A stretch of 64,000 bases of DNA from an uncultured bacterium (GTDB lineage Bacteria; Fidelibacterota; Marinisomatia; Marinisomatales; TCS56). Shown one piece after another: positions 10,438 through 48,859 of the stretch; position 1 is the first letter of the stretch, and every line of letters starts with the position of its first letter. A model generated the notes under the pieces. That model saw only the letters and a program-made list of their open reading frames with translations. It was not told the origin of the DNA and did not search any database. The translations under genes and the position numbers were made by a program. The stretch lies in contig CAYTPW010000003.1 of assembly GCA_964439935.1 (NCBI GenBank), forward strand, positions 16,743 through 80,742, read 5' to 3'.

Positions 10438-12309
10438 ATGCTAAAATACAGTAAATATCTGATCCTGACATTGCTGGTCTTTCCCCTGGCTCTTTTTGCC
10501 CAGCCTACCAATCCAGCTAATCCATCGGTTGGCGTCCCTGAACCGGCGCGCGCCGGTGAGGTTGTTGATCTGGAGGTTACTGTCACAATGGATGAAAAAT
10601 GGCACATCTACGCTGTTCACGACGTATCCGGTGGACCGATTGCAACATCGATAAAAATCAGTGGCAATGCTGTGGACCGGCAGGGAGTGGTAGAGGAACC
10701 GCGGCCAACGGTGAAATTCGATGAGGGTTTCCAGGTTAAAACCAGATACCATCAGGGAACGGTAACCTTTATTGCCCCTGTTCTGTTAAAAAACGATCTG
10801 ATGTCTGGATCCGCCGAACTTGAAGTTTCGGTACTTTATCAGGCCTGTGATGCTGCGGTATGTTATCCACCGGTTGAAGAAAAAATTCTGGTACCCATAA
10901 CTATTGAGTCAGGCAGTCCTCGTGAGGACCGTAGCCAACTGGCAGCGGCAATAGCTATCGACAGCAGTGGAAATATCGACCTTGATCGAGCTATCTCCGA
11001 AGGTTTGTTTTCATTTATTTTACTGGCTTTATCAATGGGCTTTCTGGCCTTATTGACTCCCTGTGTTTTTCCAATGATTCCAATTACAGTGTCATATTTT
11101 ACTCATCAGGGTGAAATGGAAAACCGAAATCCGGTCAAACAGGCATCGGTTTATGCAATTGGAATAATACTCACTTTTTCGATCCTGGGCTTAATACTGG
11201 CATTGACTCTGGGTGCTGCCGGGGCTAATCAGCTGGCGGCCAATCCCTGGGTGAATTTATTTATCGGTGCCCTGTTCATTTACTTTGCCCTGTCTTTATT
11301 CGGGATGTATGAAATTCAAGTACCTGAAAAATTGCGTTCCTTTACTTTGAAGCAGGAAGGTCGTTCGGGTTACGTTGGAACCCTGTTTATGGCCTTAACC
11401 TTCACCTTGACCTCCTTTACCTGCACCGTTCAGTTTGTCGGTTTGCTGCTGGTAGCGGCAGCTCAAGGACAATGGTTCTGGCCATCAATCGGAATGCTGG
11501 TTTTCAGTGCCGCCTTTGCACTACCGTTCTTCTTCCTGGCCCTGTTTCCCCAATATCTGGCCAAATTACCCCAATCCGGCGGCTGGTTGAATTCCGTTAA
11601 AGTAGTCATGGGTTTCCTGGAACTGGCGGCTGCTTTCAAATTTCTCAGCAATACAGATCTCGTCTGGCGCTGGAGTATTTTCACCCATACCACCGTATTG
11701 GCAGTATGGACAATCATTGCATTGGTCACTGGTATTTATTTGCTGGGGAAATTGAAATTACCACATGATTCGGAAGTTAGTTCGGTCGGTGTACCACGGA
11801 TGCTTTTAAGCATGTTTTTCCTGACCTTTGGGCTGTACTTGGGCACCGGTCTGCTCGGACAACCAATCCACGGATTGATCTATTCTTACCTGCCACCAAG
11901 AATTGAACAGGAAAGCCAGAGTGTCATAACTAACAATTCGATCCATGAGCAGTTTACCTGGTATAAAGATCTGGACGAAGCTCTGCTTGTGGCCCAGCGG
12001 GAACAGCGTCCGGTCTTTATCGATTTTACGGGCTATACCTGCACCAATTGCCGCTGGATGGAAGCCAATGTGTTTACCCATCCAGAAGTCCGGTCACGTT
12101 TCAGTGAATTCATTCTGGTACAATTATACACTGATGGGGGAGAAAATTATCGCGAGCATCAACAGTATGAAATTGATCGTTTTGGAACGGCATCGCTACC
12201 TTTTTACGTGGTGTTGAGTCCTGAGAATAAGGAGATTACACGCTTTCCGGGAATGTCACGCAACATTAATGACTTTATAGATTTTCTGGATATGGGATTG
12301 GCTGGTTAA
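10438..12309 (+). CDS. dsbD: thiol:disulfide interchange protein DsbD (three-domain)
   Basis: Signal peptide plus an N-terminal beta domain with YQACDAAVCYPP. Polytopic core with LTPCVFPMIP and a second TM Cys (SFTCT). C-terminal thioredoxin-like FTGYTCTNCRWME. Confidence 0.88.
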   Translation: MLKYSKYLILTLLVFPLALFAQPTNPANPSVGVPEPARAGEVVDLEVTVTMDEKWHIYAVHDVSGGPIATSIKISGNAVDRQGVVEEPRPTVKFDEGFQVKTRYHQGTVTFIAPVLLKNDLMSGSAELEVSVLYQACDAAVCYPPVEEKILVPITIESGSPREDRSQLAAAIAIDSSGNIDLDRAISEGLFSFILLALSMGFLALLTPCVFPMIPITVSYFTHQGEMENRNPVKQASVYAIGIILTFSILGLILALTLGAAGANQLAANPWVNLFIGALFIYFALSLFGMYEIQVPEKLRSFTLKQEGRSGYVGTLFMALTFTLTSFTCTVQFVGLLLVAAAQGQWFWPSIGMLVFSAAFALPFFFLALFPQYLAKLPQSGGWLNSVKVVMGFLELAAAFKFLSNTDLVWRWSIFTHTTVLAVWTIIALVTGIYLLGKLKLPHDSEVSSVGVPRMLLSMFFLTFGLYLGTGLLGQPIHGLIYSYLPPRIEQESQSVITNNSIHEQFTWYKDLDEALLVAQREQRPVFIDFTGYTCTNCRWMEANVFTHPEVRSRFSEFILVQLYTDGGENYREHQQYEIDRFGTASLPFYVVLSPENKEITRFPGMSRNINDFIDFLDMGLAG

Positions 12310-12324
12310 GTAGAAAGGACAGAT

Positions 12325-12870
12325 ATGCGAAAATATACTATTATTGGAACAATATTATTGGCTGTAATAATTGGATGCGCTCAGAAAGATACTAATCCTT
12401 CTGGTAAAGCACCGGCCCGGCCGGCTAATGCGGTCAAGGCACCGGACTTTACTCTGATGTCGGTCGATGGCCGGATTTTTTCATTCAACGACTTGAAGGG
12501 TAAAGTGGTTTTATTGAACTTCTGGGGAACCTGGTGCCCGCCCTGTCGTCGTGAAATTCCTGATTTTATTAAACTATATGATAAATATCAGGCGGATGGA
12601 CTGGAAATTGTTGGTATCACACTTTCTTCCGGGACTGTGGCCGATATTGAGAAATTTGTCCAGCACTGGAATATGAATTACAATATTTTAACAGATATTA
12701 AAAATAATGAAACCCAGGAAGTTACTGCTTTATTTAGCCGGGCGACCGGTTATCCTATTAACGGGATTCCAACCACTTTTTTAATTGATCGTGATGGGTA
12801 TATTCGAAAATCATATGTTGGACCACGATCGGAAGAGGTTTTTCTCGCTGATTTCAAACCTTTCCTATGA
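12325..12870 (+). CDS. TlpA/ResA-like periplasmic thiol-disulfide oxidoreductase, lipoprotein
   Basis: Lipobox VIIGC. Thioredoxin motif FWGTWCPPCRRE. 15 nt downstream of dsbD. Confidence 0.85.
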   Translation: MRKYTIIGTILLAVIIGCAQKDTNPSGKAPARPANAVKAPDFTLMSVDGRIFSFNDLKGKVVLLNFWGTWCPPCRREIPDFIKLYDKYQADGLEIVGITLSSGTVADIEKFVQHWNMNYNILTDIKNNETQEVTALFSRATGYPINGIPTTFLIDRDGYIRKSYVGPRSEEVFLADFKPFL

Positions 12871-13238: not shown

Positions 13239-16200
13239 ATGTTTAAATCGAAAGCTATGGCATTAATAGTAGCATTATTTTTCATTACGTCGCTTTCTTT
13301 GGCGCAATATGATCGTGATGCGGTAATCGAGATTTTATATCCCGATAATGAAACGGTAGTTGATACGGATTTTGTCGAAGTCGATTTCTATCTGGCACCA
13401 TTTTTTGCTATCGGTGATTCCGGCTGTACTGATTGCGATGGATACATCCAAGCTTTTTTGAACGACGAGTTTTACGGTAATATAAACACTGCTTCACCAG
13501 CTCTGGTCAGTGGACTGAGTGACGGACCATATTTTCTAGAATTGGTTGTTGTGAATTCCTCCGGTGTTGGTTTTACGCCCGCCCTCGGTGATACTACTTC
13601 ATTCATGGTAGATATTTTATCGCAAGCAGACCTGTGTCCGCCACGCAATCTGGAGGTTATCGCCGGAGATGGCCGAAATTTCCTGAATTGGACACCACCG
13701 GCAGGGGGTATGAGTGGCGATATTGGTTGTGGAGATTTTCTGGTTACATCGATTCCATTTAATACCTCAGGAGTAACTACTGGAATGGGAAATGACTGGG
13801 AGTTGACTGGCAGTAATAATGACGATGTTGCTTACACTTTAAATCTGAGTGATCAAACGATCATCGATGTTACTCTCTGTGATCCGGGTTCCAACTATGA
13901 CACTAAACTTGCAATTTTTACAGGTTGTCCTGATGATGGAACAGCTGATGAGATTTATTATAATGATGATGATTTTACTTGTACAGTGAGTGGTCTTCGA
14001 TCTTCGATTTTTGGTGCCGATCTTGCTCCAGGTCAGTACTATATAGTAGTTGACGGGTTTAGTACCAGCAATGGTAGTTATGTTCTTGATATAACAGAAG
14101 TAACCACCCGCAATGAAAATGCCATTGATCTTAGAGATGCTCTCGCTAATGAAACTCATAAAATGCTAATAGAAGGCTTTTCTGAGGAAGATGTGGAAAC
14201 CTTGATTCAAGAGTATCGTGCTCTAACTTGGCGTAATTATTCCCGTGAAATTGACCCGGCCTGCGGTACCTTCCTGCATTATTCAATTGTTGACGCCAAT
14301 ACCGGAACAGAAATAACCACAGCTGATACAAATTTGTATATCCATGAGGGTCTTACCAACGATACCGAATATTGTTATGAAATAGTAGCTGTATATTCTG
14401 AAGGATCTTCTGTTGCAACTGAGGTTGTTTGCGCAACACCGGAGCTATATATTCCAGCGCCACCCACAAATCTTGCTGCTGTTGGTTACGATGAAGAAGT
14501 TTTCTTGAGCTGGACCAGCCCCGACGTGCAACAGTTGGGAATTCCCTATTCAGAGGATTTCAGTTCACAATTGGTAGAACTCTGGACCTGGGAAGGTGAA
14601 AACTGGTCTATCTATGACTTCACCGGCAATCCCCCGCCCAGCGCCCAATTCAGTTGGATCCCGTCTCAGGCTAATTACGATTTAAGCCTGTATTCACCAT
14701 TTGTGCCGCTTGATGGCTACACTGATGTAATAGTCACTTTCGATATGTATTTAGATATGTATTCAGACACCGGCGAAGAATTTCTTACAATCGAATATCT
14801 TAATGGCGGTACCTGGAATCTGCTGCGTGAATTTGTTAACACCGCTGATATCCCGTGGGCCACTTATACCGATACTCTTTCCGGTGTTAGCGGGAGTATC
14901 CGTTTGCGCTTCCGCGCTCATGGTATAGATTCATTTAACTTGAATTACTGGTACATCGACAATGTCAATATTGATGGATACGTACCAACCCGTGATATGA
15001 CGGGTTCAACTGTTTTTGCCCTTGACGAATACATCGGTGGTGCCAGACAGGTAATTAATTTTAATTTGGTCTTGACCGCTCCTGATGGGGCATACTGTGA
15101 CATGTTCGAGATTACTTTCCCAGCCGGGATAACCGTAAATGGCGCTGGACCTGAATTGCTTGGCACTGGTGGTAGCATCTATCCGCCGGAAGCTTATAAT
15201 GGAGTCAATGGGCAAACTGTTTCCTGGGGTACCGATAATAATGATCAGGCTGGTGGTATTTATGGAACATTGCCCTTCTGGGTTGATCTGACATTTGATC
15301 CGTCTGTCAGCGGTCCAGTGACCTGTGATTTCTTGTTTTCAGATGACGCCTGGGGGAATCAACCCCTTGATGCTACCGGTACGGTTGATATATTAGAGCG
15401 TACTTTTGTGGATGGGGAATTATTGGGTTACAATATTTACATTGATGGCAGTACCACACCCGATAACGATTTTACTATTGGCGATAGATTTTATACGGCT
15501 ACTGAATTGATCAATGGTGTTGAATATGATTTTGAGGTTACAGCGTCTTACTATCCGGATTATGAAAGTACACCTGCATCAGCATCGGCAACTCCGACCT
15601 GGTTATTTGGCGATATTGCAGGTGTTGTTACCGATCCGGCCGACAACCTGTTGGATAGTGCAATTGTCAGTGTCGGCGGACTCAGCGATACCACCGGGAT
15701 TGATGGGGCATATATGATTTATGGTCTGGTACCAGGTGTCCATACCGTGAATGTTTCCCGACCGGGATTCGATGGCACGGAAGCAGATGTAACCGTCATT
15801 GCCCAAGAAGCTGCTGTCGAGCATGATTTCATGATGATTCCTAAACTCGGTATCCCGATGGCAGTGGAAGCGTTTGGTGGTGATCATCTGATCGATCTGC
15901 AATGGCGAGCACCAGGGGCAATGGCACCGGGTGAGTGGATGCTTTTTCATGATGGTTCTTTCGAAAATTCCATTTCTTCAACCGATGGCGGTATGGGTCT
16001 GGCCCAATTATTCATTCCACCTGGCTATCCTGCTACGATCCAGGCTGTACGATTCCATGTATCCGAATTCGGTTCGTTTGATCAGGAAATTGAGGTTAAT
16101 GTTTTTGATGCGGTTGATGGATTCACCGTTTTGTCAGGTCCGTATTTTGTCAACGGTGTCAGCAACGACTGGATCGAAATCGATATTGATGATGCCACCA

Positions 16201-17627
16201 TAGACGCCGGCGCCTTTCTGGTTGCTACCTATAACACATTACCAGGCGGTCCCTATATCTCAATTGATGAGGACAATGATTCACACAGTCTTTTCTTTGG
16301 CAGCGCTGTCGATGGTTGGACTGATATGGCCGATTATGGTTATTTCGCTGAAGGAAGCCACGAAGCATTGATCGCTGCCTCCGGACGTTCGTTCGTAATC
16401 CGTAATAATGACACAGTCGAAGAAATCTCTGATTTCAATGCGGATCTGCCGGTTAGCTTGATCAGCAGCGCTGGTACTCATGGTCCGACAGCACCGCATC
16501 CAACTGATCTTAGCCGCACTGAATCAACTCGTGATGATAGTCTGGTTGGTTACAATGTCTATCAAATTTTTGGCCTGGTTGATTCGTTGGTAGCATCCAC
16601 CGAAAGTGGCGACACAACGGCAACGATTATGGTGGATTCTAACTATGTGGAATACTGCTTTAAGATTAAAGCAATCTGGGAAACTGATCTTTACGATACA
16701 CTGGAATCAAAACCTTCTGGTGTGGCCTGTACGGAAACATTCAAGCCTGGTGATGTTGATTTCAGCGATGATGTTTCAATTACTGACTTAACAATGGTGG
16801 TCGATTTTGTTCTGGGTCTGATGGAACCTACAGTCGAACAATTCCGCGGCAGTGATATCAACCGTGATGAGATGATCAATATCCAGGATGTTATTCTGAT
16901 GGTTGATCTGATATTTGGGACCCCGGTTGCCAGATATTCTGCTGGCGACGGCTCGGAATCAGCTACACTGAGCCTGACCGTAAATAATGGCACAATGTTG
17001 AATCTGGCTCTGTCCAGTAACGTTCCGGTTCGTGGGCTGCAGTTTACCGTGGAATCAACTGCCAGTTCAATCCAGCTTGGGAGTCCTTCGATTCTGGGTG
17101 CCAATGGTGAGTTATTATTGGCAGGGAACACCAATGCCAGTAATCAGGTGACCTATGTGATAGCCAGGATTGATGGACAGGCGCTCGATTTGCGCGGTGA
17201 AGTGCTGGCAACCATACCATTCACGGTAAAGGGACAATCAAGAGAAATGGCGGAAATCAGTCTCAATAATTCTCGATTGGCGGGATTCAACGGTGTGTCG
17301 ATTCCGGTTACGGAGCGTTCCACGGTTATCGATTTTGATGTGATGCCTTCCAGTTATGCCTTGCATCAGAATTATCCCAATCCCTTCAACCCGGAAACGG
17401 ATATTAAATTTGATTTACCGGATGCAGGTCTGGTCCAACTGGTAATCTATAATATTACCGGTCAGAAAATTCGGACACTGGTGAGCGATAATCTGGAAGC
17501 TGGATTTCACCAAATCCGGTGGAACGGCACCAATGAATATAACGAACCGGTAGCCACTGGGATGTATTTTTACCAGTTGACGGCCGGCAATTACCATGCC
17601 ACCAAGAAAATGGTAATCTTGAAGTAA
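13239..17627 (+). CDS. giant modular surface protein P1 (1462 aa), T9SS-sorted
   Basis: RBS GGAGG. Signal peptide ending SLA|QY. FN3-like modules, a PPC-like module, a MAM/jelly-roll-like module, a CarboxypepD_reg-like module, dockerin-like and cohesin-like modules, and a T9SS C-terminal domain. Paralogous to the next gene along its whole length. Confidence 0.92.
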   Translation: MFKSKAMALIVALFFITSLSLAQYDRDAVIEILYPDNETVVDTDFVEVDFYLAPFFAIGDSGCTDCDGYIQAFLNDEFYGNINTASPALVSGLSDGPYFLELVVVNSSGVGFTPALGDTTSFMVDILSQADLCPPRNLEVIAGDGRNFLNWTPPAGGMSGDIGCGDFLVTSIPFNTSGVTTGMGNDWELTGSNNDDVAYTLNLSDQTIIDVTLCDPGSNYDTKLAIFTGCPDDGTADEIYYNDDDFTCTVSGLRSSIFGADLAPGQYYIVVDGFSTSNGSYVLDITEVTTRNENAIDLRDALANETHKMLIEGFSEEDVETLIQEYRALTWRNYSREIDPACGTFLHYSIVDANTGTEITTADTNLYIHEGLTNDTEYCYEIVAVYSEGSSVATEVVCATPELYIPAPPTNLAAVGYDEEVFLSWTSPDVQQLGIPYSEDFSSQLVELWTWEGENWSIYDFTGNPPPSAQFSWIPSQANYDLSLYSPFVPLDGYTDVIVTFDMYLDMYSDTGEEFLTIEYLNGGTWNLLREFVNTADIPWATYTDTLSGVSGSIRLRFRAHGIDSFNLNYWYIDNVNIDGYVPTRDMTGSTVFALDEYIGGARQVINFNLVLTAPDGAYCDMFEITFPAGITVNGAGPELLGTGGSIYPPEAYNGVNGQTVSWGTDNNDQAGGIYGTLPFWVDLTFDPSVSGPVTCDFLFSDDAWGNQPLDATGTVDILERTFVDGELLGYNIYIDGSTTPDNDFTIGDRFYTATELINGVEYDFEVTASYYPDYESTPASASATPTWLFGDIAGVVTDPADNLLDSAIVSVGGLSDTTGIDGAYMIYGLVPGVHTVNVSRPGFDGTEADVTVIAQEAAVEHDFMMIPKLGIPMAVEAFGGDHLIDLQWRAPGAMAPGEWMLFHDGSFENSISSTDGGMGLAQLFIPPGYPATIQAVRFHVSEFGSFDQEIEVNVFDAVDGFTVLSGPYFVNGVSNDWIEIDIDDATIDAGAFLVATYNTLPGGPYISIDEDNDSHSLFFGSAVDGWTDMADYGYFAEGSHEALIAASGRSFVIRNNDTVEEISDFNADLPVSLISSAGTHGPTAPHPTDLSRTESTRDDSLVGYNVYQIFGLVDSLVASTESGDTTATIMVDSNYVEYCFKIKAIWETDLYDTLESKPSGVACTETFKPGDVDFSDDVSITDLTMVVDFVLGLMEPTVEQFRGSDINRDEMINIQDVILMVDLIFGTPVARYSAGDGSESATLSLTVNNGTMLNLALSSNVPVRGLQFTVESTASSIQLGSPSILGANGELLLAGNTNASNQVTYVIARIDGQALDLRGEVLATIPFTVKGQSREMAEISLNNSRLAGFNGVSIPVTERSTVIDFDVMPSSYALHQNYPNPFNPETDIKFDLPDAGLVQLVIYNITGQKIRTLVSDNLEAGFHQIRWNGTNEYNEPVATGMYFYQLTAGNYHATKKMVILK
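13719..14096 (+). other. P1 pre-peptidase-C-terminal (PPC)-like domain, nested in the first FN3-like module (aa approx 161-286)
   Basis: DDVAYTLNLSDQTIIDVTLCDPGSNYDTKLAIFTGC...APGQYYIVVDGFSTSNGSYVLDI. Homologous to P2 aa approx 439-563. Confidence 0.55.
14544..14978 (+). other. P1 MAM/'choice-of-anchor J'-like jelly-roll domain, nested in the second FN3-like module (aa approx 436-580)
   Basis: YSEDFSSQLVELWTWEGENWSIYDF...LYSPFVPLDGYTDVIVTFDMY...EFLTIEYLNGGTWNLL...IRLRFRAHG...WYIDNVNIDG. Confidence 0.5.
15609..15836 (+). other. P1 carboxypeptidase-regulatory-like beta-sandwich
   Basis: GDIAGVVTDPADNLLDSAIVSVGGLSDTTGIDGAYMIYGLVPGVHTVNVSRPGFDG. P2 has GDVTGVITDPNGVTLDSAVVSAGGISDTTDTDGEYLLHNLVPGTYTVNVQRPGFDG. 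Confidence 0.7.
15933..16391 (+). other. P1 copy of the highly conserved unknown domain (aa 899-1051)
   Basis: EWMLFHDGSFENSISSTDGGMGLAQLF...ATIQAVRFHVSEFGSFDQEIEVNVF...NDWIEIDIDDATIDAGAFLVATYN...DYGYFAEGSHEALIAASGRS. 126 of 153 aligned positions are identical to P2 in my hand alignment. Confidence 0.8.
16749..16919 (+). other. P1 dockerin-like module (two EF-hand-like Ca loops)
   Basis: GDVDFSDDVSITDLTMVVDFVLG...GSDINRDEMINIQDVILMVDLIFG has the duplicated D.D/N.D....I...D + hydrophobic helix pattern of type-I dockerins. Confidence 0.65.
16962..17354 (+). other. P1 cohesin-like beta-sandwich (tentative)
   Basis: ATLSLTVNNGTMLNLALSSNVPVRGLQFTVESTASSIQLGSP...GEVLATIPFTVKGQSREMAEISLNNSRL. This fits the G.QF.(L/V).Y/E...(L/I)....I.F.V pattern common to cohesin-type modules. 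Confidence 0.45.
17355..17624 (+). other. P1 T9SS C-terminal sorting domain (type A, FlgD-Ig-like)
   Basis: YALHQNYPNPFNPETDIKFDLPDAGLVQLVIYNITGQKIRTLV...HQIRWNGTNEYNEPVATGMYFYQLTAGNYHATKKMVILK. Confidence 0.88.
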
Positions 17628-17660: not shown

Positions 17661-20600
17661 ATGCTTAGAAAATCAGCATTATTGTTCTTAATTATCCTTA
17701 TTCTGTGTGGTGGACCGGTCATGGCACAATATGACCGGGATGAAGTCGTGAATATCAGCTCCCCGGTATCCGGCACGGTCGTTAATACTGATACACTCGA
17801 GGTCACTTTTGATCTGGCTTCATTTTTTACGATCGGCGACTCAGCCTGCAGCGATTGTGATGGTTATCTAAATGCTTATTTGAATGCTGAGTTGGCAACC
17901 ACAGCTCATGAGACCGGTAGTTTTATGCTGCGAGACCTTACCGATGGTTACTATATCCTGCTGCTTGAAGCAGTCGATCCGGATGGTAACAGCTTCACAC
18001 CCACAGTCTGGGATACAGCCAGCTTTTCGGTGATGTATGAAGAGAACTTTTGTCCCCCGGGGAATTTAGCGGTCAGTCCAACCTATCAATATGAGGCCCT
18101 GGCCCTCAATTGGAGGGAACCTTTCCTGGGAGCTGAAGGACTGTATTTTGAGGATTTTGAGGCTGGTGACGGTGGCTATGCCAGTACAGCTGATTGGGCT
18201 TATGGTGCGCCAACTTCAGGCGAACCACCGAATGCTTACTCCGGTGATTTTCTATGGGGTATCAATTTAGTGGGCGATTACCCCAACAGTTCCAACAGTA
18301 CCCTTGACAGTCCTCCCATATCACTGTCTGGCTTATTGGCTCCGCATCTTATGTTCTGGCACTGGTATGATATAGAATTCAGTTGGGATGGAGGTAATGT
18401 AAAATTATCTGTCGATAACGGTGCTAATTGGACAATTATTGAACCAATTGATGGATATGATGATGATGCAGCCTACACCGGCAATCCTGGGATTCCCGGA
18501 GAACCTTGTTTTACAGGAACTCAGGATTTTTGGCATGAAGCCATTTTTGATTTGTCAGATTATGCCGGAGAAGAAGTAATAATTCGCTGGCATTTTGGGT
18601 CCGATAGCTCCGTACCATATCCCGGCTGGTTTATCGATGATGTTACTATTAGTGAGCCGGTTCCAGATATTTTCTCGCGTGAATTTATCATGAGCTGTGG
18701 TGATCTGACCGGCTATGAAGTTTATCGTGGTGGTGCCTGGGTGGCGGATGTTGATACCAATTTTTACCTCGATGAAGCAGTAACGCTGGGAACCGAATAT
18801 TGCTATTATGTAACAGCGGTATACGACAGTGCCGGATCCGTGGTTGTCTCCGATACCAGTAATAATGCCTGTGGTATTCCGGAAACATACATTCCAATGC
18901 CACCGACCTATTTGTCAGCCATCCCTGGTGATGAAGAGGTCTATCTGAACTGGGAAGCTCCCGGATTGACATTCCAGGATGGTGAAAACTGCCTGGTACC
19001 AATTGTAATCGGCGATGTTGGTGATGGATTCAGTCAGATTATAAATGGCGATAATACCGGCTTTATCAATGATTATACCAATGGATTCTCTGCGGGAGGA
19101 CCCGATGTTGTTTATCAGTTTACCATTCTGGAAACAGTAAATATATCCTTTTCACTTTGTGGTGGCGCCACCTGGGATACCTACCTGATCCTTTTAAATG
19201 GCGGCTGTGATGAGACACTGGCCTTTGATGATGATGGTTGCGGCACTTTACAGTCTTTGCTCGAAGGAACCCTGGGACCCGGCGTTTATAATATCGTTGT
19301 CGATGGTTTCAGCACGTCATCCTATGGCGCTTATAGTATGACAATGACTGCGACAGCAACCCGGACTCTACCCGGTTTCCCAGCCACTGTAATAGATCGG
19401 GATAAGCTAACTGAGCGTGAATTGGAATACCAGAAGGCAGCTACAGCAGCTGGTCGTGATATCGGTGGTTCATTTGTTGTTGCCAATGGCGGTTATCTAC
19501 CTGGGTCTGCCACTTTCACCGATTTCACGTTAACAATTGTCTCAACCGATTTTTCGGAGTGCGATTCATTTGCGGTGACCTTCCCGGCCGAACTGGTCGT
19601 TTTAGATGCTGGTCCGCAACCGTTGTCTGGTGAAGAATTCAATGGTGTTCAGGGTCAGACAATTTCATGGGGTAGCGACCGCGATGATGGCATGGGCGGT
19701 ATCATCGGTACAATTGATTTTTGGGCTATGATTCTGGCAGATCCTCTAGCCTCAGGCCCGCTGACCTGTGATTATTTCTTCTCCGATGATGGTGATGCAT
19801 CGATAGTTGATGCTGGCGGTACGTTTGATATCGAAGAATGGATACCGGGTGATGGTGAATTCATGGGCTACAATGTTTATATTGATGGTGGTACCGATCC
19901 CGACAATGATTTCGAATTGCCCTTCCCGGGATACCTGGTTGAAGAACTGACCAATGATGTCAGCTACGATTTCCAGGTTACCGCTTTTTATTACCCTGAT
20001 TATGAAAGTGCACCAGTCTCGGTATCAGCCACACCCACCTGGCTGTTCGGCGATGTTACTGGTGTAATTACCGATCCGAACGGCGTCACACTGGATAGTG
20101 CTGTGGTTTCCGCAGGTGGTATCAGCGATACAACCGATACCGATGGAGAATATCTACTGCATAACTTGGTACCCGGTACCTACACCGTCAATGTCCAGCG
20201 ACCAGGATTTGATGGGGCCAAGGGTGGCGTTAGCGTTATGGCCCAGGAAGCAGCCACAGTTCTCGATTTCATGATGATTCCGAAGCTGGGGAAACCTGGT
20301 GGTTTGACCGCCACTAGTGCTGACGAGGTAGTATATCTGGCCTGGAATTCACCCGGTTCGGTTGTACCAGGTGAGTGGATGTTCTTCCATGATGGAACTT
20401 TTGAGAATTCGATCTCTTCCACCGCCGGTGGTATGGGACTGGCCCAGTTATTTGTTCCGCTGGCCTATCCGGCCACAATTCAGGCAGTGCGTTTCCATGT
20501 ATCCGATTTTGGATCATTTGACCAGGATATTGAGGTCAATGTCTTTGCGGATGACGGCTTAACAGTCCTGTCAGGACCATATATCATTCCAGGCGTTTAT

Positions 20601-22052
20601 AATGATTGGATTGAAATCGATATTGACGATGCTACTATTGATGAAGGAGCCTTCCTGGTGGCAACCTATAATGTTTTAGCGGGTGGTCCCTATGTTTCAA
20701 TCGATCAGGATAACTATTCAGCCAGTTTATTCTTTGGAAATACGGTTGATGGTTGGACGGAAATGGGTGACTATGGCTATTTTGCCGAAGGCAGTCATGA
20801 AGCGTTGATCGCAGCAGCGGGCCGCTCGGTGACAGTCCAGCCCAATGGTGTTGTCCTGGACAATCAAACAAGCAATATACCAGTCAGTCTGGCTTCTATT
20901 GCTGTATCACATGGAACGACAGCCCCCCGTATGCCCGATGGATTACGGACTGTATCAACCCGTGAGGATAGTTTAATCGGCTATCATGTCTATCAGGAGA
21001 CGGTGACCGGCGATAGTCTGGTTGCAGCCAATGCCAGTGATGATACGACCGCCACAATCGTTGTCCCTGCTAATTATATTGAATACTGCTATACTGTAAA
21101 AGCAGTCTGGGACACTGATGAGTATGATACGCTGGAATCAAAGCCGTCCAATATGGCCTGTGTGGTTCCATTCTTGCCCGGAGATGTTGATTTCGTTGGC
21201 GGTGTTACCGTATTGGATCTGGTAATGGTGGTCGATTTTGCCCTTGGTGTAGCTGTACCCAGTCTGGATCAATTCCGTGGAGCCGATATCAATCTTGATG
21301 GTATAATCAATATTCAGGACATCATCATGATCGTCGATATAATCATCCCCCCGACGACTGCCAGAACCAGTGTTCTAAATGGAAGTACAGCAGCACTGGA
21401 ATTACTGTATGACGGGCATCAGAATCTCAGCCCATTGCTGATCTATGACGGAATTGTCCGTGGTATTCAATTCGTCCTGGAATACGATGCCGACGGTATT
21501 GAACTGGGAGCACCGGTCATTTCTGGTTCAACGAAAGATCAGCTGATGAACTACCAGGTATCCGCACCGGGTGTCATGCATATTCTGATCGCGAATATTA
21601 ATGGTGGCGCGCTTGATATCGACAAAGCACTGGCGGCAATTCCTTTGACTGTAAAAGCGAAATCCGGGTCTGAATCAGAAATAAAGCTGATCGATCCGGT
21701 TCTGGTTGGCTCCAATGGTGAGAGTATTCCAGTTGTTACTAAATCCATTAGTCTTGATTTAATAGCTGTACCAACGCAGTATTCTTTACATCAGAACTAT
21801 CCCAATCCGTTCAATCCGGTTACTGATATCATGTTTGATATTCCCAACGCCGGACCGGTGGAATTGGTTATCTACAACCTGATGGGACAGAAAGTCAGGA
21901 CTCTGGTTAAAGGTGACATATCCATCGGATATCACTCAATTCGCTGGAACGGATTAGGCGATAATGGGACACCAGTTGCTACCGGTATGTATTTCTATCA
22001 GATTACTGCCGGTAATTTCCATGCGACTAAGAAGATGGTATTATTGAAATAA
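17661..22052 (+). CDS. giant modular surface protein P2 (1463 aa), T9SS-sorted paralog of P1
   Basis: RBS AGGAGG. Signal peptide ending VMA|QY. Same scaffold as P1 with two nested domains in the opposite order. 33-nt gap from P1. Confidence 0.92.
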   Translation: MLRKSALLFLIILILCGGPVMAQYDRDEVVNISSPVSGTVVNTDTLEVTFDLASFFTIGDSACSDCDGYLNAYLNAELATTAHETGSFMLRDLTDGYYILLLEAVDPDGNSFTPTVWDTASFSVMYEENFCPPGNLAVSPTYQYEALALNWREPFLGAEGLYFEDFEAGDGGYASTADWAYGAPTSGEPPNAYSGDFLWGINLVGDYPNSSNSTLDSPPISLSGLLAPHLMFWHWYDIEFSWDGGNVKLSVDNGANWTIIEPIDGYDDDAAYTGNPGIPGEPCFTGTQDFWHEAIFDLSDYAGEEVIIRWHFGSDSSVPYPGWFIDDVTISEPVPDIFSREFIMSCGDLTGYEVYRGGAWVADVDTNFYLDEAVTLGTEYCYYVTAVYDSAGSVVVSDTSNNACGIPETYIPMPPTYLSAIPGDEEVYLNWEAPGLTFQDGENCLVPIVIGDVGDGFSQIINGDNTGFINDYTNGFSAGGPDVVYQFTILETVNISFSLCGGATWDTYLILLNGGCDETLAFDDDGCGTLQSLLEGTLGPGVYNIVVDGFSTSSYGAYSMTMTATATRTLPGFPATVIDRDKLTERELEYQKAATAAGRDIGGSFVVANGGYLPGSATFTDFTLTIVSTDFSECDSFAVTFPAELVVLDAGPQPLSGEEFNGVQGQTISWGSDRDDGMGGIIGTIDFWAMILADPLASGPLTCDYFFSDDGDASIVDAGGTFDIEEWIPGDGEFMGYNVYIDGGTDPDNDFELPFPGYLVEELTNDVSYDFQVTAFYYPDYESAPVSVSATPTWLFGDVTGVITDPNGVTLDSAVVSAGGISDTTDTDGEYLLHNLVPGTYTVNVQRPGFDGAKGGVSVMAQEAATVLDFMMIPKLGKPGGLTATSADEVVYLAWNSPGSVVPGEWMFFHDGTFENSISSTAGGMGLAQLFVPLAYPATIQAVRFHVSDFGSFDQDIEVNVFADDGLTVLSGPYIIPGVYNDWIEIDIDDATIDEGAFLVATYNVLAGGPYVSIDQDNYSASLFFGNTVDGWTEMGDYGYFAEGSHEALIAAAGRSVTVQPNGVVLDNQTSNIPVSLASIAVSHGTTAPRMPDGLRTVSTREDSLIGYHVYQETVTGDSLVAANASDDTTATIVVPANYIEYCYTVKAVWDTDEYDTLESKPSNMACVVPFLPGDVDFVGGVTVLDLVMVVDFALGVAVPSLDQFRGADINLDGIINIQDIIMIVDIIIPPTTARTSVLNGSTAALELLYDGHQNLSPLLIYDGIVRGIQFVLEYDADGIELGAPVISGSTKDQLMNYQVSAPGVMHILIANINGGALDIDKALAAIPLTVKAKSGSESEIKLIDPVLVGSNGESIPVVTKSISLDLIAVPTQYSLHQNYPNPFNPVTDIMFDIPNAGPVELVIYNLMGQKVRTLVKGDISIGYHSIRWNGLGDNGTPVATGMYFYQITAGNFHATKKMVLLK
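18141..18650 (+). other. P2 MAM/'choice-of-anchor J'-like jelly-roll, nested in the first FN3-like module (aa approx 161-330)
   Basis: YFEDFEAGDGGYASTADWAYG...LDSPPISLSGLLAPHLMFWHWYDIEFSWDGGNVKLSVDNGANWTII...EEVIIRWHFGSDSSVPYPGWFIDDVTI. Confidence 0.55.
18975..19349 (+). other. P2 PPC-like domain, nested in the second FN3-like module (aa approx 439-563)
   Basis: PDVVYQFTILETVNISFSLCGGATWDTYLILLNGGC...GPGVYNIVVDGFSTSSYGAYSMTM. Confidence 0.55.
20373..20828 (+). other. P2 copy of the highly conserved unknown domain (aa 905-1056)
   Basis: EWMFFHDGTFENSISSTAGGMGLAQLF...ATIQAVRFHVSDFGSFDQDIEVNVF...NDWIEIDIDDATIDEGAFLVATYN...DYGYFAEGSHEALIAAAGRS. Confidence 0.8.
21180..21347 (+). other. P2 dockerin-like module
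   Basis: GDVDFVGGVTVLDLVMVVDFALG...GADINLDGIINIQDIIMIVDII. Confidence 0.65.
21390..21779 (+). other. P2 cohesin-like beta-sandwich (tentative)
   Basis: AALELLYDG...IVRGIQFVLEYDADGIELGAPVI...ALAAIPLTVKAKSGSESEIKLIDPVL. Confidence 0.45.
21780..22049 (+). other. P2 T9SS C-terminal sorting domain
   Basis: YSLHQNYPNPFNPVTDIMFDIPNAGPVELVIYNLMGQKVRTLV...HSIRWNGLGDNGTPVATGMYFYQITAGNFHATKKMVLLK. Confidence 0.88.
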
Positions 22053-22106: not shown

Positions 22107-22159
22107 TGGAACAATTCCTGTCCAAATTGCATTGAAATATTAAATTTTTGGAGAATACA

Positions 22160-23557
22160 ATGCGAAAATTGATACTGTTCACCATATTATTTGTTGTAAC
22201 AGCTTATACGCAGAATTCAATCGTCGATAAGTTCAGTCAGGCTCTGGCTGATGTTGCCGAGCGGGCCAACCCGGCGGTAGTGACCATCACTACTGAGAAG
22301 GTTTATAACTCAAATTCACGTAATCCTTATCACGGAACTCCGTTTGAGGAATTTTTCAATTACCATTTCAATGTTCCTGACCGTAAATACAAGGGACAGG
22401 CTTTGGGTTCTGGTGTAATTGTCAATTCCCGGAAAGGTTATATTTTAACCAATAACCACGTAGTGGACGATGCTGATGCGATTAATATCCAACTGATTGA
22501 TAAACGGGTTATTCAGGCGGAAGTAGTGGGGTCAGATCCCAAATCTGATCTGGCAGTGCTGCAAATTGATGCAAAGAATCTCACTGCACTGGAATTAGGA
22601 AATTCCGATCAACTGCGCGTCGGCGAGTGGGTTATGGCCGTTGGTAGCCCATTTTCAGCAAACCTTAGCCATACTGTGACAGCCGGAATTGTTAGCGCTC
22701 TGGGTCGATCAAATATTATTCCAGGGTCTGAGGACTATGAAGATTTCATCCAAACCGATGCAGCGATTAATCCTGGAAACAGTGGTGGTGCCCTGTTGAA
22801 TATGAAGGGTGATCTGGTGGGAATTAATACAGCAATTGCCACTGGCGGTTATGAGCGAGCTAATCGGGGAGTCGGATTTGCCATACCGTCTAATATGGCC
22901 AAAAAGGTTATGCAGGATTTGATCGAAAATGGTTACGTCATTCGCTCCTGGCTGGGTGTTTGGATTCAGGAAGTCGAAGATAAAGTAGCCCGTGCCTTGG
23001 ATCTCGAGACACGGGAGGGAGCGATTATCAGCCAGGTCGCCGAAGACAGTCCAGCTGAGAAAGCAGGGCTCAGTACAGGCGATATTATTGTTGCCTTTGA
23101 TGGAGTCAGTATAAATGGCCCATCAAAATTGCAGAATGTGGTATCAGCTACCAAACCGGGCACGAAATCGAAAGTGGAAATCATCCGCGATGGAAAGAAA
23201 AAAACAATTAATGTGATTTTGGAGGAGTTACCCCAGGATGATCAAGTTTTTTCCAGCCGTTTACCAAGTAAGACAGATGATCTTGGCATAGAGGTGCAGG
23301 AATTAACCGGATCACTGGCAGAGCGATACGGCATTGATTCAAACACAGAAGGAGTAGTCATTACCAACGTGGAGCGTGGCAGCCCTGGTGATGAAGCCGG
23401 CTTGCGTCCTGGTGACGTTGTGATTCGGATTGGCTCCCGAGATATTACAGGCTTAAAAGAATTCCGGCGCTTGAGCAGCCCTGAGGATAATAATGTTCTG
23501 TTGCTACTGGTTAAGCGTGGGAATGTATCACGTTATTTCACTTTGGATATTGGTTAA
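22160..23557 (+). CDS. htrA: periplasmic serine endoprotease HtrA/DegP/DegQ family with two PDZ domains
   Basis: Catalytic triad context TNNHVV (His), DLAVLQI (Asp) and GNSGGAL (Ser). Two PDZ-like blocks (SPAEKAGLSTGDIIVAFDG, SPGDEAGLRPGDVVIRIG). I prefer the ATG at 22160 (RBS GGAGA 7 nt upstream) over the track's TTG at 22148. Confidence 0.9.
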   Translation: MRKLILFTILFVVTAYTQNSIVDKFSQALADVAERANPAVVTITTEKVYNSNSRNPYHGTPFEEFFNYHFNVPDRKYKGQALGSGVIVNSRKGYILTNNHVVDDADAINIQLIDKRVIQAEVVGSDPKSDLAVLQIDAKNLTALELGNSDQLRVGEWVMAVGSPFSANLSHTVTAGIVSALGRSNIIPGSEDYEDFIQTDAAINPGNSGGALLNMKGDLVGINTAIATGGYERANRGVGFAIPSNMAKKVMQDLIENGYVIRSWLGVWIQEVEDKVARALDLETREGAIISQVAEDSPAEKAGLSTGDIIVAFDGVSINGPSKLQNVVSATKPGTKSKVEIIRDGKKKTINVILEELPQDDQVFSSRLPSKTDDLGIEVQELTGSLAERYGIDSNTEGVVITNVERGSPGDEAGLRPGDVVIRIGSRDITGLKEFRRLSSPEDNNVLLLLVKRGNVSRYFTLDIG

Positions 23558-31294: not shown

Positions 31295-34200
31295 ATGGAT
31301 AACTTAACAGAAATATTGCAGCAGCGCATCCTGTTCCTGGACGGGGCTATGGGCACTATGATCCAGGCTAATAATTTGGAGGAAACCGATTTCCGGGGTG
31401 AAAAATTCAAGAATCATTCAATCGATCTCCTGGGGAATAACGATATTCTCAACTTGACCCGACCGGATGTTGTCGAATCGATTTACCGGGCTTATTTAGA
31501 ATCCGGGGCTGATATTATTGAGACCAACACTTTCAGCGCCAATGCCATCTCTCAGTCTGACTTTCAGCTTGAGGACCAGGTCTATAATATGAATCTGGAG
31601 GCAGCCAGGCTGGCTCGCCAGGCAGCAGATGATTTTACCGACCAAAAAGCTGAAAAACCTCGATTTGTCGCCGGTGTACTGGGACCGACTAACCGTACGG
31701 CAACCCTATCACCTGATGTTGAGCGCCCCGGGTACCGGGCAGTAAATTTTGATCAACTGAAGGAGGCCTACGCTACCCAGGTGGCTGCCTTATTGGAAGG
31801 TCTGGTCGATATACTATTGGTCGAAACAGTTTTCGATACGCTTAATTGTAAAGCTGCCCTATTTGCCATACAAGAGTATTTTTATGACCATGATTGCTCG
31901 GTGCCAATTATGGTATCGGGGACAATTACCGATGCCAGCGGGCGAACCTTATCAGGCCAGACTCTGGAGGCTTTCTGGAATTCGATTAGTCATGCAAATC
32001 TATTCTGTGTTGGTTTGAATTGTTCTTTAGGCGCCGAGGAATTGCGTCCTTACCTGCGCGAATTATCCGAGATTGCTAATACATTTGTGTCAATCCATCC
32101 CAATGCCGGATTGCCTAATGAATTGGGTGAATATGATCAATCGCCAGAAAATATGTCCCATCTGATCGGTGATTTTGCCACCAATAGGTTAGTAAACATA
32201 GTTGGCGGTTGTTGCGGAACGACCCCAGATCATATAAAAGCGATTGTCGAAACCGTTGCAAGTAAAAAGCCACGAAAAATTCCGGTGATACCCGAATTTA
32301 CCCGCCTTAGTGGTCTGGAAGCGCTTACAATTCAGCCCGATTCCCTGTTTGTCAATATTGGTGAGCGTACCAACGTTGCCGGTTCAACGCGTTTTGCCCG
32401 TTTGATTCGCGAAGGGAATTATGAGCGGGCACTCGAAATTGCCCGTCAACAGATTGATAATGGAGCTCAGATTATTGACATAAATATTGATGATGCCATG
32501 CTGGATTCGGCCGCAGTAATGGAAATATTCCTGAATATGATTGCGTCTGATCCCGGTATCAGTAAGGTGCCAATCATGCTGGATTCATCTGACTGGGAGG
32601 TGCTGGAGCGAGGTCTAAAATGCCTGCAGGGTAAAGGCATTGTCAATTCGATCAGCCTTAAAGATGGTGAAAAACTGTTTCTGCAACGGGCACGACTGAT
32701 CCGGAATTACGGTGCTGCTGTTATAATAATGGCTTTTGATGAAAATGGGCAAGCCGAAACATATGATCGCAAGATTTCAATCTGTCGGCACGCTTTTAAC
32801 CTGCTGACCAATCAGCTTGGATTTCCCGCCCAGGATATAATTTTTGACCCCAATATATTCGCTGTTGCCACAGGAATTGAAGAACATAATTCCTATGCGG
32901 CTGATTATATTGCTGCCTGCCGTACGATTAAGCAGGAATTTCCCAATGCTCTGGTCAGCGGTGGTGTAAGCAATATTTCCTTTGCTTTTCGTGGTAATAA
33001 TGCAATTCGGGAAGCGATTCATTCAGTCTTTCTTTATCACGCTGTCCAGGCTGGTATGGATATGGGAATTGTGAATGCCGGTCAATTGGCGGTCCATGAT
33101 GATATACCGGATGAATTACGACAAATTGTTGAGGATGTTATTCTGAACCGAAATCCACAGGCAGTCGAGCAATTAACGAAACTGGCGGTGAAATTTCGGC
33201 AATCCGAACCTATCAAAACGGCCAAAGCGGAATGGCGCGAGCAGGCCGTTGAAGAGCGGATTAAGTATGCACTTGTTGAAGGTTTAGCTGATTTTATTGA
33301 GCAGGATGTTGAGGAATTACGATTAAAATCCGGTCGTGCACTTTCGATAATAGAAGGTACATTGATGGAGGGTATGCGATCGGTCGGTGATTTGTTCAGC
33401 AGTGGAAAAATGTTTCTTCCACAAGTTGTAAAAAGTGCCCGCGTTATGAAAAAGGCTGTAGCCTATCTGGTTCCGTTTGTTGAAGAAGAAAGGCAGAAAA
33501 ACGGTAATGCATTTCCGGTACGTGCAAAAATCCTTTTGGCAACCGTTAAGGGTGATGTGCACGATATAGGAAAGAATATTGTTGCGGTAGTGCTGGGATG
33601 TAATAATTATGAAATTATTGATCTGGGGGTAATGGTTCCAGCTGATCAGATTTTGACAGAGGCAATCAAACACCAGGTCGATATTATTGGCCTGAGCGGG
33701 TTGATAACTCCTTCACTGATAGAAATGACCCGGGTCGCCAGAGAAATGAATCACCGGAAGCTAAAAATACCATTGTTGATCGGCGGAGCAACAACTTCTC
33801 AAATACATACAGCCGTTAAAATCGATCCCGAATATTCGGGACCGGTCATTCATGTTACCGATGCTTCAAGAAGTGTGGATACGGTTAATCAGTTATTAAG
33901 TGACGAATCAACAGCCGGATTTGTTGAATCGACAGATCAATCATACCGCCAAATAAGGAAAACATATAAAGCACGGCGCGTAGCAACCAGCCTGCTGTCA
34001 ATTGGTGAAGCTCGCCGTAATCATTTCAAGATTGATAGGAAAGATTATCAACCACCGCGGCCGGCTGTCCGGGAACGCCAGGTATACAGAAATTTCCCCC
34101 TGGAAAAACTGGTGCCATACATAGATTGGACTCCCTTCTTTCATGTTTGGGAGTTGAAAGGCCGATATCCTGCTATTTTAAATAACAACAGTTTTGGTAC

Positions 34201-34987
34201 TCAAGCACGGGAGCTGCTGGAGAACGGACAGGACTGGTTGGAGCGACTCAGCTCCGAAAAACTGATTGAGGCACGTTCAGTGTCCGCTTTTTTCCCAGCA
34301 AATTCGAATGGTGATGATATTCTGGTTTACGCTGATAAATTACGTTCAAATCCAATAGCCACACTATTTGGTTTACGACAACAGACCGATCACAAACTTA
34401 AACGATCCAATATTTGTCTAAGCGATTATGTCGTGCCTCAAGATTTTGGACTAAATGATTGGATTGGTGGCTTTGTAGTCAGCGCTGGTTTTGGTGTCAA
34501 GCAATTAGTTAAACAATTGCGTGCGGAAAATGACGTATACGGTGTAACTATGGTCCAGGCCCTGGCCGATCGGCTGGCTGAGGCATTTGCGGAATATCTG
34601 CACGAATTGACACGCCGGGAATTTTGGGGCTATGCTGCTGGTGAAAAATTAGATAATGACCAGTTAATCAGGGAAAATTATCGGGGCATACGTCCCGCGC
34701 CCGGTTACCCGGCATGCCCGGACCATTCGGAAAAGGGGACCTTATTCAATCTGCTAGATGTCGAACAGGAAATCGGTGTTAATTTGACAGAAAATTATGC
34801 TATGGATCCGGCTGCTACTGTCAGCGGGTGGTACCTGTCACATCCCGAAGCGCGGTATTTCAGTGTCGGTAAACTGGATCGTGACCAGATTGAGGATTAC
34901 GCTGATCGTAAAGGAATGAATTTGAGTGTGATTGAAGAATTATTAAGCCAAAATCTGGCCTATGAACCCTCCCGGATAAAAGTATGA
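31295..34987 (+). CDS. metH: cobalamin-dependent methionine synthase
   Basis: Hcy-binding [10 protein letters not shown] and [11 protein letters not shown], a pterin-binding domain, the B12-binding [10 protein letters not shown] (DxHxxG) with SGL and GGA blocks, and a C-terminal AdoMet-activation domain. 1230 aa. Confidence 0.95.
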
Positions 34988-35009
34988 AACAAATTACAAT
35001 GGTAAAATT

Positions 35010-35954
35010 ATGAAGGTTATCGAGCATATTGAGCGCGCCCAATCGCCATTATTCAGTTATGAAATTATTCCTCCTCCCCGTGGAAAAAGTGCCCAGGAAA
35101 TCATTGATATTGTCAAATTGCTGCAGTCCTATGATCCACCCTACATTGATGTGACCAGCCATTCTGCTGAAGCCACCTACGAAGAACGAGATGATGGCAC
35201 GATTAAGCGGCGCATCCGTAAAAAACGGCCCGGAACCATCAGTATCTGTGGCATTATTCAGAATCGTTTCAAGATTGATACTGTAGCCCATTTATTATGC
35301 CGAGGTTTTACGCAGGAAGAAACAGAGGATGCATTGATCGAATTAAATTACCTGGGGATTGAAAATGTGCTGGCGGTTCGTGGCGACGAGACGAATTACA
35401 AGAAAATGCACAGTAAGGATCGTAGTATTAATTTATATACCAGTGATCTCGTAGTCCAGATTGGAAAAATGAATCGGGGTCAGTATCTGGAAGAATTATT
35501 AAATGCCGAACCGACTAATTTTTGCATCGGTGTCGGCGGTTACCCGGAAAAACATTTTGAAGCACCCAATTTGAAAACCGATATTGATCATTTGAAATCC
35601 AAGGTGGCTATCGGTGCGGAGTATATTGTTACGCAGATGTTTTTCAATAACCAGGTCTATTTTGATTTTGTAGAACTTTGTCGAAACGCTGGAATCGATG
35701 TACCTGTAATCCCCGGTATAAAAGTTATTAATCAACTTTCCCAATTAAAAAATATTCCTCGTAATTTCCACGTTGATTTACCGGATGAACTGGTAGATGA
35801 GATTCAAGAGAATCCATCTCATATCAAAGAGATCGGCTTCGAATGGGCTTATAAACAATGTGTTGAATTATTGAACTGTGGTATAACAAACCTGCATTTC
35901 TACATAATGAATGATGCTACCGTTATCACCAGAATTATTGATCAATTGAATTAA
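35010..35954 (+). CDS. metF: 5,10-methylenetetrahydrofolate reductase
   Basis: FSYEIIPPPRG, HLLCRG, LAVRGD, GGYPEKH and AEYIVTQMFF blocks. Confidence 0.9.
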   Translation: MKVIEHIERAQSPLFSYEIIPPPRGKSAQEIIDIVKLLQSYDPPYIDVTSHSAEATYEERDDGTIKRRIRKKRPGTISICGIIQNRFKIDTVAHLLCRGFTQEETEDALIELNYLGIENVLAVRGDETNYKKMHSKDRSINLYTSDLVVQIGKMNRGQYLEELLNAEPTNFCIGVGGYPEKHFEAPNLKTDIDHLKSKVAIGAEYIVTQMFFNNQVYFDFVELCRNAGIDVPVIPGIKVINQLSQLKNIPRNFHVDLPDELVDEIQENPSHIKEIGFEWAYKQCVELLNCGITNLHFYIMNDATVITRIIDQLN

Positions 35955-36004
35955 AGGTATGAACCAGCAAGAAATAATATGAATAATGAAACTAAGGAGT
36001 TATT

Positions 36005-37180: not shown

Positions 37181-37194
37181 AATTGGAATAAAAT

Positions 37195-47999: not shown

Positions 48000-48033
48000 T
48001 CTGCCTAGAATAAATCGAGATACCGAGAAAAAT

Positions 48034-48753: not shown

Positions 48754-48859
48754 AAATCAATGTGTTGGATCGTATCATCTGTTTGGCTACGACTAAGTAC
48801 TTTGAATTCCGGATTACTACCAATAATTCCAAAGAATATTCTAACTGGAGAACTTTGAG

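Follow-up and report, generated by a model that had tools for sequence, protein, structure and literature searches.

What do two giant surface proteins, encoded side by side in an uncultured marine bacterium, carry immediately ahead of their secretion signals, and what could these modules bind? The question is raised by a 64,000-nucleotide stretch of contig CAYTPW010000003.1, which was analysed whole and is called the window below; positions are counted from its first letter. The DNA comes from the Fidelibacterota, a phylum of the Fibrobacterota-Chlorobiota-Bacteroidota (FCB) group that was earlier called Marinimicrobia or SAR406 (PMC11652737). Its two proteins in question, P1 and P2, are non-catalytic paralogs that this marine bacterium encodes in tandem and carries at its cell surface. 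Both end in the same cassette, in which a linker of about 15 residues joins a dockerin with calcium-binding loops to a cohesin, and one of about 10 residues joins the cohesin to a type-A sorting domain for the T9SS (type IX secretion system).

Dockerin and cohesin modules of P1 and P2

P1 is an open reading frame (ORF) at positions 13239..17627 that encodes a secreted, non-catalytic, multi-beta-sandwich surface protein of 1462 amino acids (aa), and its paralog P2 follows at 17661..22052 with 1463 aa. These ORFs and all of their modules lie on the forward strand. From aa 334 onwards their sequences share 51% identity, and in the dockerin-cohesin region of the tail 45%. Each combines a signal-peptide-like sequence at the N-terminus with a sorting domain at the extreme C-terminus, the combination that defines a T9SS type-A cargo. 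The N-termini are hydrophobic and signal-peptide-like, with A-x-A-like cleavage sites (MFKSKAMALIVALFFITSLSLA/QYD in P1 and …CGGPVMA/QYD in P2). The sorting domain of P1 occupies 17373..17624 (aa 1379-1462) and contains the motif HQNYPNPFNP; it scores 42.6 bits with TIGR04183, for which the cut-off is 23 bits, 29.8 bits with PF18962 and 35.8 bits with PF13860. That of P2 lies at 21798..22049 (aa 1380-1463) and scores 42.9 bits with TIGR04183. A sequence-only reading of this DNA had placed a dockerin and a cohesin next to one another, directly before the T9SS anchor signal, in both paralogs. The coordinates given here, together with the TIGR04183 match in each protein, bear this arrangement out.

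We took a dockerin to be two tandem 12-residue calcium-binding loops, with ligands at positions 1, 3, 5 and 12 and a helix after each loop. P1 has this structure at 16749..16919 (aa 1171-1227; loops DVDFSDDVSITD and DINRDEMINIQD), and P2 has it at 21180..21350 (aa 1174-1230; loops DVDFVGGVTVLD and DINLDGIINIQD). The calcium ligands of P1 read D-D-S-D in loop 1 and D-N-D-D in loop 2, with positions 1, 3 and 12 kept in both loops and position 5 occupied by Ser in the first and Asp in the second. Loop 2 of P2 is canonical (D-N-D-D), and its loop 1 reads D-D-V-D, with Val in place of the position-5 Asp; the two loops and their predicted helices are present in P2 despite this loss. Of 110 related tails, 90 have Asp at loop-1 position 5 and 14 have Ser or Asn; a hydrophobic residue stands there in three, all of which belong to the P2 clade. 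The remaining ligand positions are 82-100% conserved. The first calcium loop of P2 is thus degenerate, as had been proposed from its letters. The Pfam model Dockerin_1 (PF00404) scored 26.0 bits on the isolated P1 segment and 23.4 bits on that of P2, above its cut-off of 22.9 bits; on the full-length proteins the scores fell below this cut-off (19.5 bits for P1 and 16.7 bits for P2). A small profile of the tails also matched the solved dockerins 9qf9, 5nrm_B and 4uyp_B, with E-values of 3e-4 to 7e-4. The assignment of a dockerin-like segment to both paralogs is upheld by these matches, and translation of 16749-17354 and 21180-21779 yields exactly the peptides that had been quoted for it.

The cohesin of P1 lies at 16971..17351 (aa 1245-1371) and is colinear with that of P2 at 21390..21755 (aa 1244-1365). 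The Pfam Cohesin model (PF00963) scored 24.7 bits on P2, against a cut-off of 24.1 bits, and gave no Pfam match to P1. A check with dockerin and cohesin models, which the sequence-only reading had recommended, therefore gives Dockerin_1 matches for P1 and P2 and a Cohesin match for P2, all of them barely over the curated cut-off. We also built a cohesin profile from 18 distant cassette cohesins, leaving out P1 and P2, and used 2000 shuffles as the control. With this independent profile, residues 1245-1371 of P1 scored 61.8 bits (E 6e-18) and P2 scored 67.8 bits, compared with a maximum of 7.7 bits among the shuffles (n=2000). A cohesin-only profile that includes the P1 and P2 modules (A5) matches the solved cohesins 3l8q (E 2.5e-5), 2xdh_A of Archaeoglobus fulgidus (E 4e-4) and the NagJ cohesin of Clostridium perfringens (E 7e-4). 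The strand-3 G-x-Q motif of the cassette cohesins is 94-95% conserved and aligns to the SGCQ motif of ScaA cohesins, which may bear indirectly on dockerin binding at the 8-3-6-5 sheet.

We modelled the last 302 residues of P2 with AlphaFold2 (AF2), using an alignment of 44 tails. The model has a mean predicted local distance difference test (pLDDT) score of 90.2 and a predicted template modelling (pTM) score of 0.74; the P2 tail alone gave a pLDDT of 37. It contains the three helices of the dockerin at model residues 23-34, 41-47 and 57-67 (pLDDT 94-97), a nine-stranded beta-sandwich at 83-204, which corresponds to the cohesin, and a second beta-sandwich at 227-300, which corresponds to the sorting domain. 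When this model was compared with the Protein Data Bank (PDB) using Foldseek, the best matches were nearly all cohesins, with a probability of 1.0 and single-module template modelling (TM) scores of 0.65-0.74. They include 2jh2_C (TM 0.74), 5nrm_A (0.71) and 2xdh (0.70), with root-mean-square deviations of 3.4-3.7 A. The independent-profile scores of both proteins and the predicted fold of P2 bear out the cohesin-like beta-sandwich that had been suggested for the two paralogs. Together, the evidence for the dockerin and cohesin modules is far beyond chance.

A portable C-terminal cassette

To survey the cassette, we searched 1.84 billion cluster representatives exhaustively with HMMER, using a profile spanning dockerin and cohesin. 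This search returned 1717 proteins at E<=1e-3, 150 of them at E<=1e-10; a word-indexed homolog search found 1, then 34 relatives, and the genome scan, which used alignment A1, mainly recovers close relatives and generic dockerins. The HMMER matches, in proteins of 300-3000 aa, mostly form one stretch that spans the dockerin and cohesin and ends about 85 residues before the C-terminus. Among the best 150 of the 1717, a complete dockerin-cohesin unit lies 70-115 residues from the end in 108, and a PNPF motif lies within about 105 residues of the C-terminus in 113. We annotated 50 distant members with Pfam, which identified Dockerin_1 in 44 (best E 4e-13), Cohesin in 30 (best E 1e-30), FlgD_ig in 49 and Por_Secre_tail in 35; nearly all have a sorting-domain match. 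Their cargo is varied and mostly non-catalytic, with Ig-like/ASH/DUF1573, NHL, FG-GAP, MAM and beta-helix domains. More than 100 diverged protein families thus bear the cassette as a portable unit at the C-terminus, and the P1/P2 pair is not special among them. Because so many families carry it, any pairing of dockerin with cohesin concerns all cassette proteins rather than a heterodimer code of P1 and P2.

The close relatives of P1 and P2 come from metagenome-assembled genomes (MAGs) of Candidatus Neomarinimicrobiota. Relatives are named Marinimicrobia, Neomarinimicrobiota or Fidelibacterota at NCBI, and members also occur in Tara mesopelagic samples. One Neomarinimicrobiota MAG (L003) also has the pair in tandem, and after it comes an ORF at the place where the window has HtrA. 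Two distant cassette proteins from candidate division KSB1 are already named "dockerin type I domain-containing protein". The public labels of the P1/P2 family are "FlgD immunoglobulin-like domain containing protein" or "choice-of-anchor J domain-containing protein".

The same parts, abbreviated here as Doc (dockerin), Coh (cohesin) and CTD (C-terminal sorting domain), also occur in other combinations. Where the order is Coh-Doc-Coh-CTD, the extra cohesin is Pfam-positive and directly precedes the dockerin, giving two sockets per plug. Poribacterial proteins with the order Coh-Doc-CTD are about 1400-1750 aa long; a cohesin-like part immediately precedes their dockerin, and their T9SS-type PNPF tail begins about 60 residues past the start of the dockerin. 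Three Neomarinimicrobiota loci (L010 3114-7838, L013 2599-7841 and L033 1533-3763) contain clusters of small paralogs of about 390-410 aa. The N-terminal domain of these paralogs is conserved and contains Cys (motif QPYSCTQWGN), and each also has a dockerin, a stretch that resembles a cohesin, and a sorting domain. The related protein encoded beside them has a PKD domain and ends in a dockerin, without a sorting domain. In some metagenomic matches, P0052 (6124 aa), P0084, P0096 and P0106, the cohesin part of the profile matches repeatedly, 5-23 times, and the PNPF tail is absent; these proteins are candidate multi-cohesin scaffoldins.

Geometry of the cassette and possible pairing of its modules

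The linker from dockerin to cohesin has 15 residues in P1 and 14 in P2. Across the 110 tails its median length is 15, and 98 tails fall within 13-18 residues; the linker from cohesin to sorting domain has exactly 10 residues in 68 of the 110. The linker columns are unconserved in sequence, with entropies of 3.2-3.8 bits. Because length is conserved without conservation of sequence, we conclude that the modules are kept at fixed distances, unlike those of beads-on-a-string scaffoldins, which have variable linkers. By our estimate, pTM would reach at most about 0.45 for three independently moving domains, and at most about 0.65 with any two domains rigid. The value of 0.74 for the P2 tail exceeds both ceilings, and the model therefore suggests a single defined arrangement of all three domains. 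Such a fixed dockerin-cohesin geometry would fit contact in cis, or reciprocal contact between two molecules, at least as well as open-ended chains.

Based on the conserved linker lengths and the high pTM, we tentatively favor a reading that we hold to be somewhat short of probable. The dockerin and cohesin of each cassette would form a self-complementary pair in fixed contact, most simply within one molecule or else reciprocally between two copies. By analogy with the Bacteroidota (PMC8545088), T9SS would export P1 and P2, remove the sorting domain and attach the new C-terminus to the outer membrane, and the cohesin would thereby become the membrane-proximal module. The dockerin-cohesin pair would then act as a rigid, calcium-stabilized pedestal that holds the variable cargo off the membrane. 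In a more speculative step, the pair could open and exchange with other cassettes or with dockerin-only enzymes.

Several points weigh against this pedestal. We infer the contact between dockerin and cohesin in the AF2 model from pTM alone, and AF2 does not separate cis from trans contacts. Mean-field direct-coupling analysis of the 110 tails (effective number about 103) had no power for the interface; among the top 100-400 pairs the inter-domain density equaled the intra-cohesin density, and a cluster within the top 60 was not robust. The geometry is also not unique. Several distant members (among them P0046 from KSB1, P0055, P0078, P0081 and P0117) have the order Coh-Doc-Coh-CTD, and the Candidatus Poribacteria loci (L022-L041; for example, L028 482-4777 and L036 6619-10767) have Coh-Doc-CTD. 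To our knowledge, T9SS function has been established by experiment in Bacteroidota only, and we recognized no T9SS component gene within the window. Finally, if the cohesin were permanently capped by its own dockerin, the phylum's dockerin-only hydrolases would lack an obvious receptor.

These hydrolases are the basis of a second reading, which we regard as possible though doubtful, in which each cassette protein would be an anchoring scaffoldin with a single cohesin. The cohesin would be a putative socket for secreted dockerin-only enzymes, and the protein's own dockerin would plug into another cohesin, giving a cellulosome-like display of peptidases and esterases rather than cellulases. Dockerins without a T9SS sorting domain are present in an M43 peptidase, a BD-FAE/carboxylesterase, a DUF1028 protein and a PNGase-F-like protein, the last with an N-terminal dockerin. 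The dockerin-only hydrolase loci are L029 (1283-6159) and L042 (5827-7614), both from Neomarinimicrobiota, and L016 (1459-2424), from a MAG. Dockerin-bearing M4 peptidase, esterase and phosphatase proteins are found in metagenomes. These hydrolases would need cohesin partners and are possible ligands of the cassette cohesins, which are the obvious candidates, and a comparable T9SS-sorted cohesin scaffoldin with dockerin-bearing enzymes has been proposed for Cloacimonadota (PMC8542988). However, the dockerin-only loci stem from other genomes, and the window contains no dockerin-only gene and no dockerin, cohesin or sorting domain besides those of P1 and P2. A lone cohesin per anchor, with the protein's own dockerin alongside, would be an odd design for a receptor, and the scaffoldin scheme would need some route over the outer membrane for enzymes that lack a sorting domain.

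A third reading, chaining in trans, generalizes the P1-P2-P1 lattice of the sequence-only reading and appears rather unlikely to us. Here the dockerin of one molecule would bind the cohesin of its neighbor, and cassette proteins would co-polymerize into chains or a two-dimensional calcium-dependent mesh above the outer membrane. Every cassette protein does carry both partners, from the same module families and at equal height above the anchor, the constrained linkers are also compatible with a regular lattice, and another genome likewise preserves the two diverged paralogs side by side. The lineage-specific degenerate loop of the P2 clade could, in addition, bias its dockerin to one binding mode. 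The same linker of 14-15 residues, however, probably allows capping in cis, which would compete with chain growth, and the AF2 model of a monomer is already globally confident. Moreover, with the cassette on many cargos, a specific P1-P2 alternation is not required. We give less credence still to the broadest version of this idea, which we consider distinctly unlikely. In this version, several uncultured phyla of the FCB group, Marinimicrobia and KSB1 among them, would use the cassette as the universal self-assembling base of their T9SS cargo. Interlocking neighbors would form a calcium-dependent, two-dimensional outer-membrane mesh, a modular surface layer that carries diverse projecting binding domains and on which dockerin-only hydrolases can dock.

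It is least probable that the modules have lost partner binding and are simply folded spacers ahead of the sorting signal, comparable to the Ig-like domains found at that place in many T9SS cargos. The borderline Pfam scores of P1 and P2, the ligand missing from loop 1 of P2 and the identity of just 45% between the paralogs in this region would all fit, but the calcium ligands and the strand-3 G-x-Q motif are conserved across the tails, and strict co-occurrence with constrained linkers across more than 100 families argues for selection on the dockerin-cohesin pair.

Genomic setting, known systems and significance

Upstream of the cassette, P1 has fn3 and CarboxypepD_reg domains and a weak choice-of-anchor J match (Pfam and NCBIfam), and P2 has InhA-like MAM, CarboxypepD_reg and fn3 domains (Pfam). 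Searches of the N-terminal 1160 residues of both proteins against Pfam and NCBIfam gave no catalytic domain, a transthyretin-like domain being the sole match. The N-terminal thirds of the two proteins are shuffled modules (13239-14700 in P1 and 17661-19400 in P2). Module order is apparently permuted, with P1 residues from 134 on, a Cys-rich beta domain, aligning to P2 from residue 414, and a MAM/choice-of-anchor-J-like module at residues 448-578 in P1 and 213-330 in P2.

The window is chromosomal housekeeping DNA, in which P1 and P2 are neighbors of genes for DsbD, a TlpA-like redoxin, HtrA and IleRS. Genes for envelope folding and quality control bracket the pair, with DsbD and a TlpA/AhpC-like redoxin upstream (10438-12870) and HtrA/DegP downstream (22148-23557). 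These genes may be relevant to the folding of the giant, Cys-containing P1 and P2. Farther downstream, at 31295-38640, a compact activated-methyl-cycle cluster encodes, in a row, the B12-dependent methionine synthase MetH, MTHFR, S-adenosylmethionine synthetase and S-adenosylhomocysteine hydrolase. At 38809-43247, an ORF of 988 aa, for which Pfam gave no match at E<=1e-3, overlaps by 4 bases with the gene that follows it, which encodes a 491-aa DUF5723 protein that has weak similarity to TraF_2; the two could be a surface protein and its outer-membrane partner. Two tandem AcrB-type resistance-nodulation-division (RND) pumps of about 1030 aa each (44904-51928) are followed by a patatin-POTRA-Omp85 fusion (52946-55393).

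Binding between cohesin and dockerin modules has been demonstrated for clostridial toxin complexes. The sequence-only reading had pictured a non-cellulolytic cohesin-dockerin lattice. A non-cellulolytic system of this sort would not be new in kind: such systems are known (Peer et al. 2009, cited in PMC9012536), and for Cloacimonadota there is already a proposal of a cohesin scaffoldin with a T9SS anchor (PMC8542988). According to PMC9012536, non-cellulosomal cohesins and dockerins are established, including proteins with both modules (Peer et al. 2009, Haimovitz et al. 2008). The same source reports proteins of anaerobic methanotrophic archaea (ANME) with a dockerin and cohesins, and cites a demonstration of binding for archaeal modules.

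The A. fulgidus cohesin 2XDH, NagJ and NagH of C. perfringens and the ANME modules are likewise cohesins and dockerins outside cellulose degradation. P1 and P2 differ from them in that dockerin, cohesin and T9SS signal make up one fixed cassette, which occurs on many cargos and in bacterial candidate phyla and is known here by sequence and model. The cellulosomal anchoring and adaptor scaffoldins of Clostridia (for example, OlpC and OlpA of C. thermocellum, ScaA and ScaB of A. cellulolyticus) also carry a cohesin, and in adaptors a dockerin too, with a surface anchor on one polypeptide. They share with P1 and P2 the two-calcium-loop dockerin and the cohesin fold, 4dh2, 3l8q and 5nrm being among the top Foldseek matches. 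In contrast to these scaffoldins, P1 and P2 come from a diderm FCB-group host and are anchored through a T9SS sorting domain rather than by SLH (S-layer homology) modules or sortase. They have one cohesin that adjoins its own dockerin across a short fixed linker, neither a carbohydrate-binding module (CBM) nor a glycoside hydrolase, and non-catalytic beta-sandwich cargo. In T9SS cargo of the gingipain type, an Ig-like beta-sandwich lies directly before the type-A sorting domain, which is expected to be cleaved later and replaced by a lipid anchor. The corresponding beta-sandwich of P1 and P2 is a cohesin that is always paired with a dockerin.

Candidatus Stygibacter of the Cloacimonadota (Williams et al. 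2021, PMC8542988) also belongs to the FCB group, and has cohesins on a protein with a T9SS C-terminal domain together with dockerin-bearing peptidases and glycosidases. Its scaffoldin has 3755 aa with tandem cohesins and the modules CBM2 and CBM3, whereas P1 and P2 each have one dockerin, one cohesin and no CBM. We considered the cellulosome as an identity for the system and rejected it, since P1 and P2 have a single cohesin each, with no CBM and no glycoside hydrolase, and no multi-cohesin scaffoldin accompanies them. The dockerin-only proteins of related genomes (peptidase, esterase, DUF1028 and PNGase-like) are not the plant-cell-wall glycoside hydrolases set for cellulosome membership. We searched the literature for the cassette in Marinimicrobia or other FCB candidate phyla and found no description. 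In the literature searched, a fixed Doc-Coh-CTD cassette with constrained linkers, on many cargo families of Marinimicrobia, KSB1 and related uncultured bacteria, thus appears to be undescribed.

The cassette corrects public annotation, in which the FlgD immunoglobulin-like and choice-of-anchor J labels hide a dockerin-cohesin unit, and short self-complementary units of this kind may serve surface-display engineering. With it, cohesin-dockerin biology reaches beyond the cellulosomes of Gram-positive bacteria to display on the outer membrane of diderm candidate phyla. The nearly uncultured Marinimicrobia (SAR406) abound in the dark ocean, and a conserved plug-and-socket cassette fused to a T9SS signal provides a testable handle on the organization of their surface and on their retention of extracellular enzymes.

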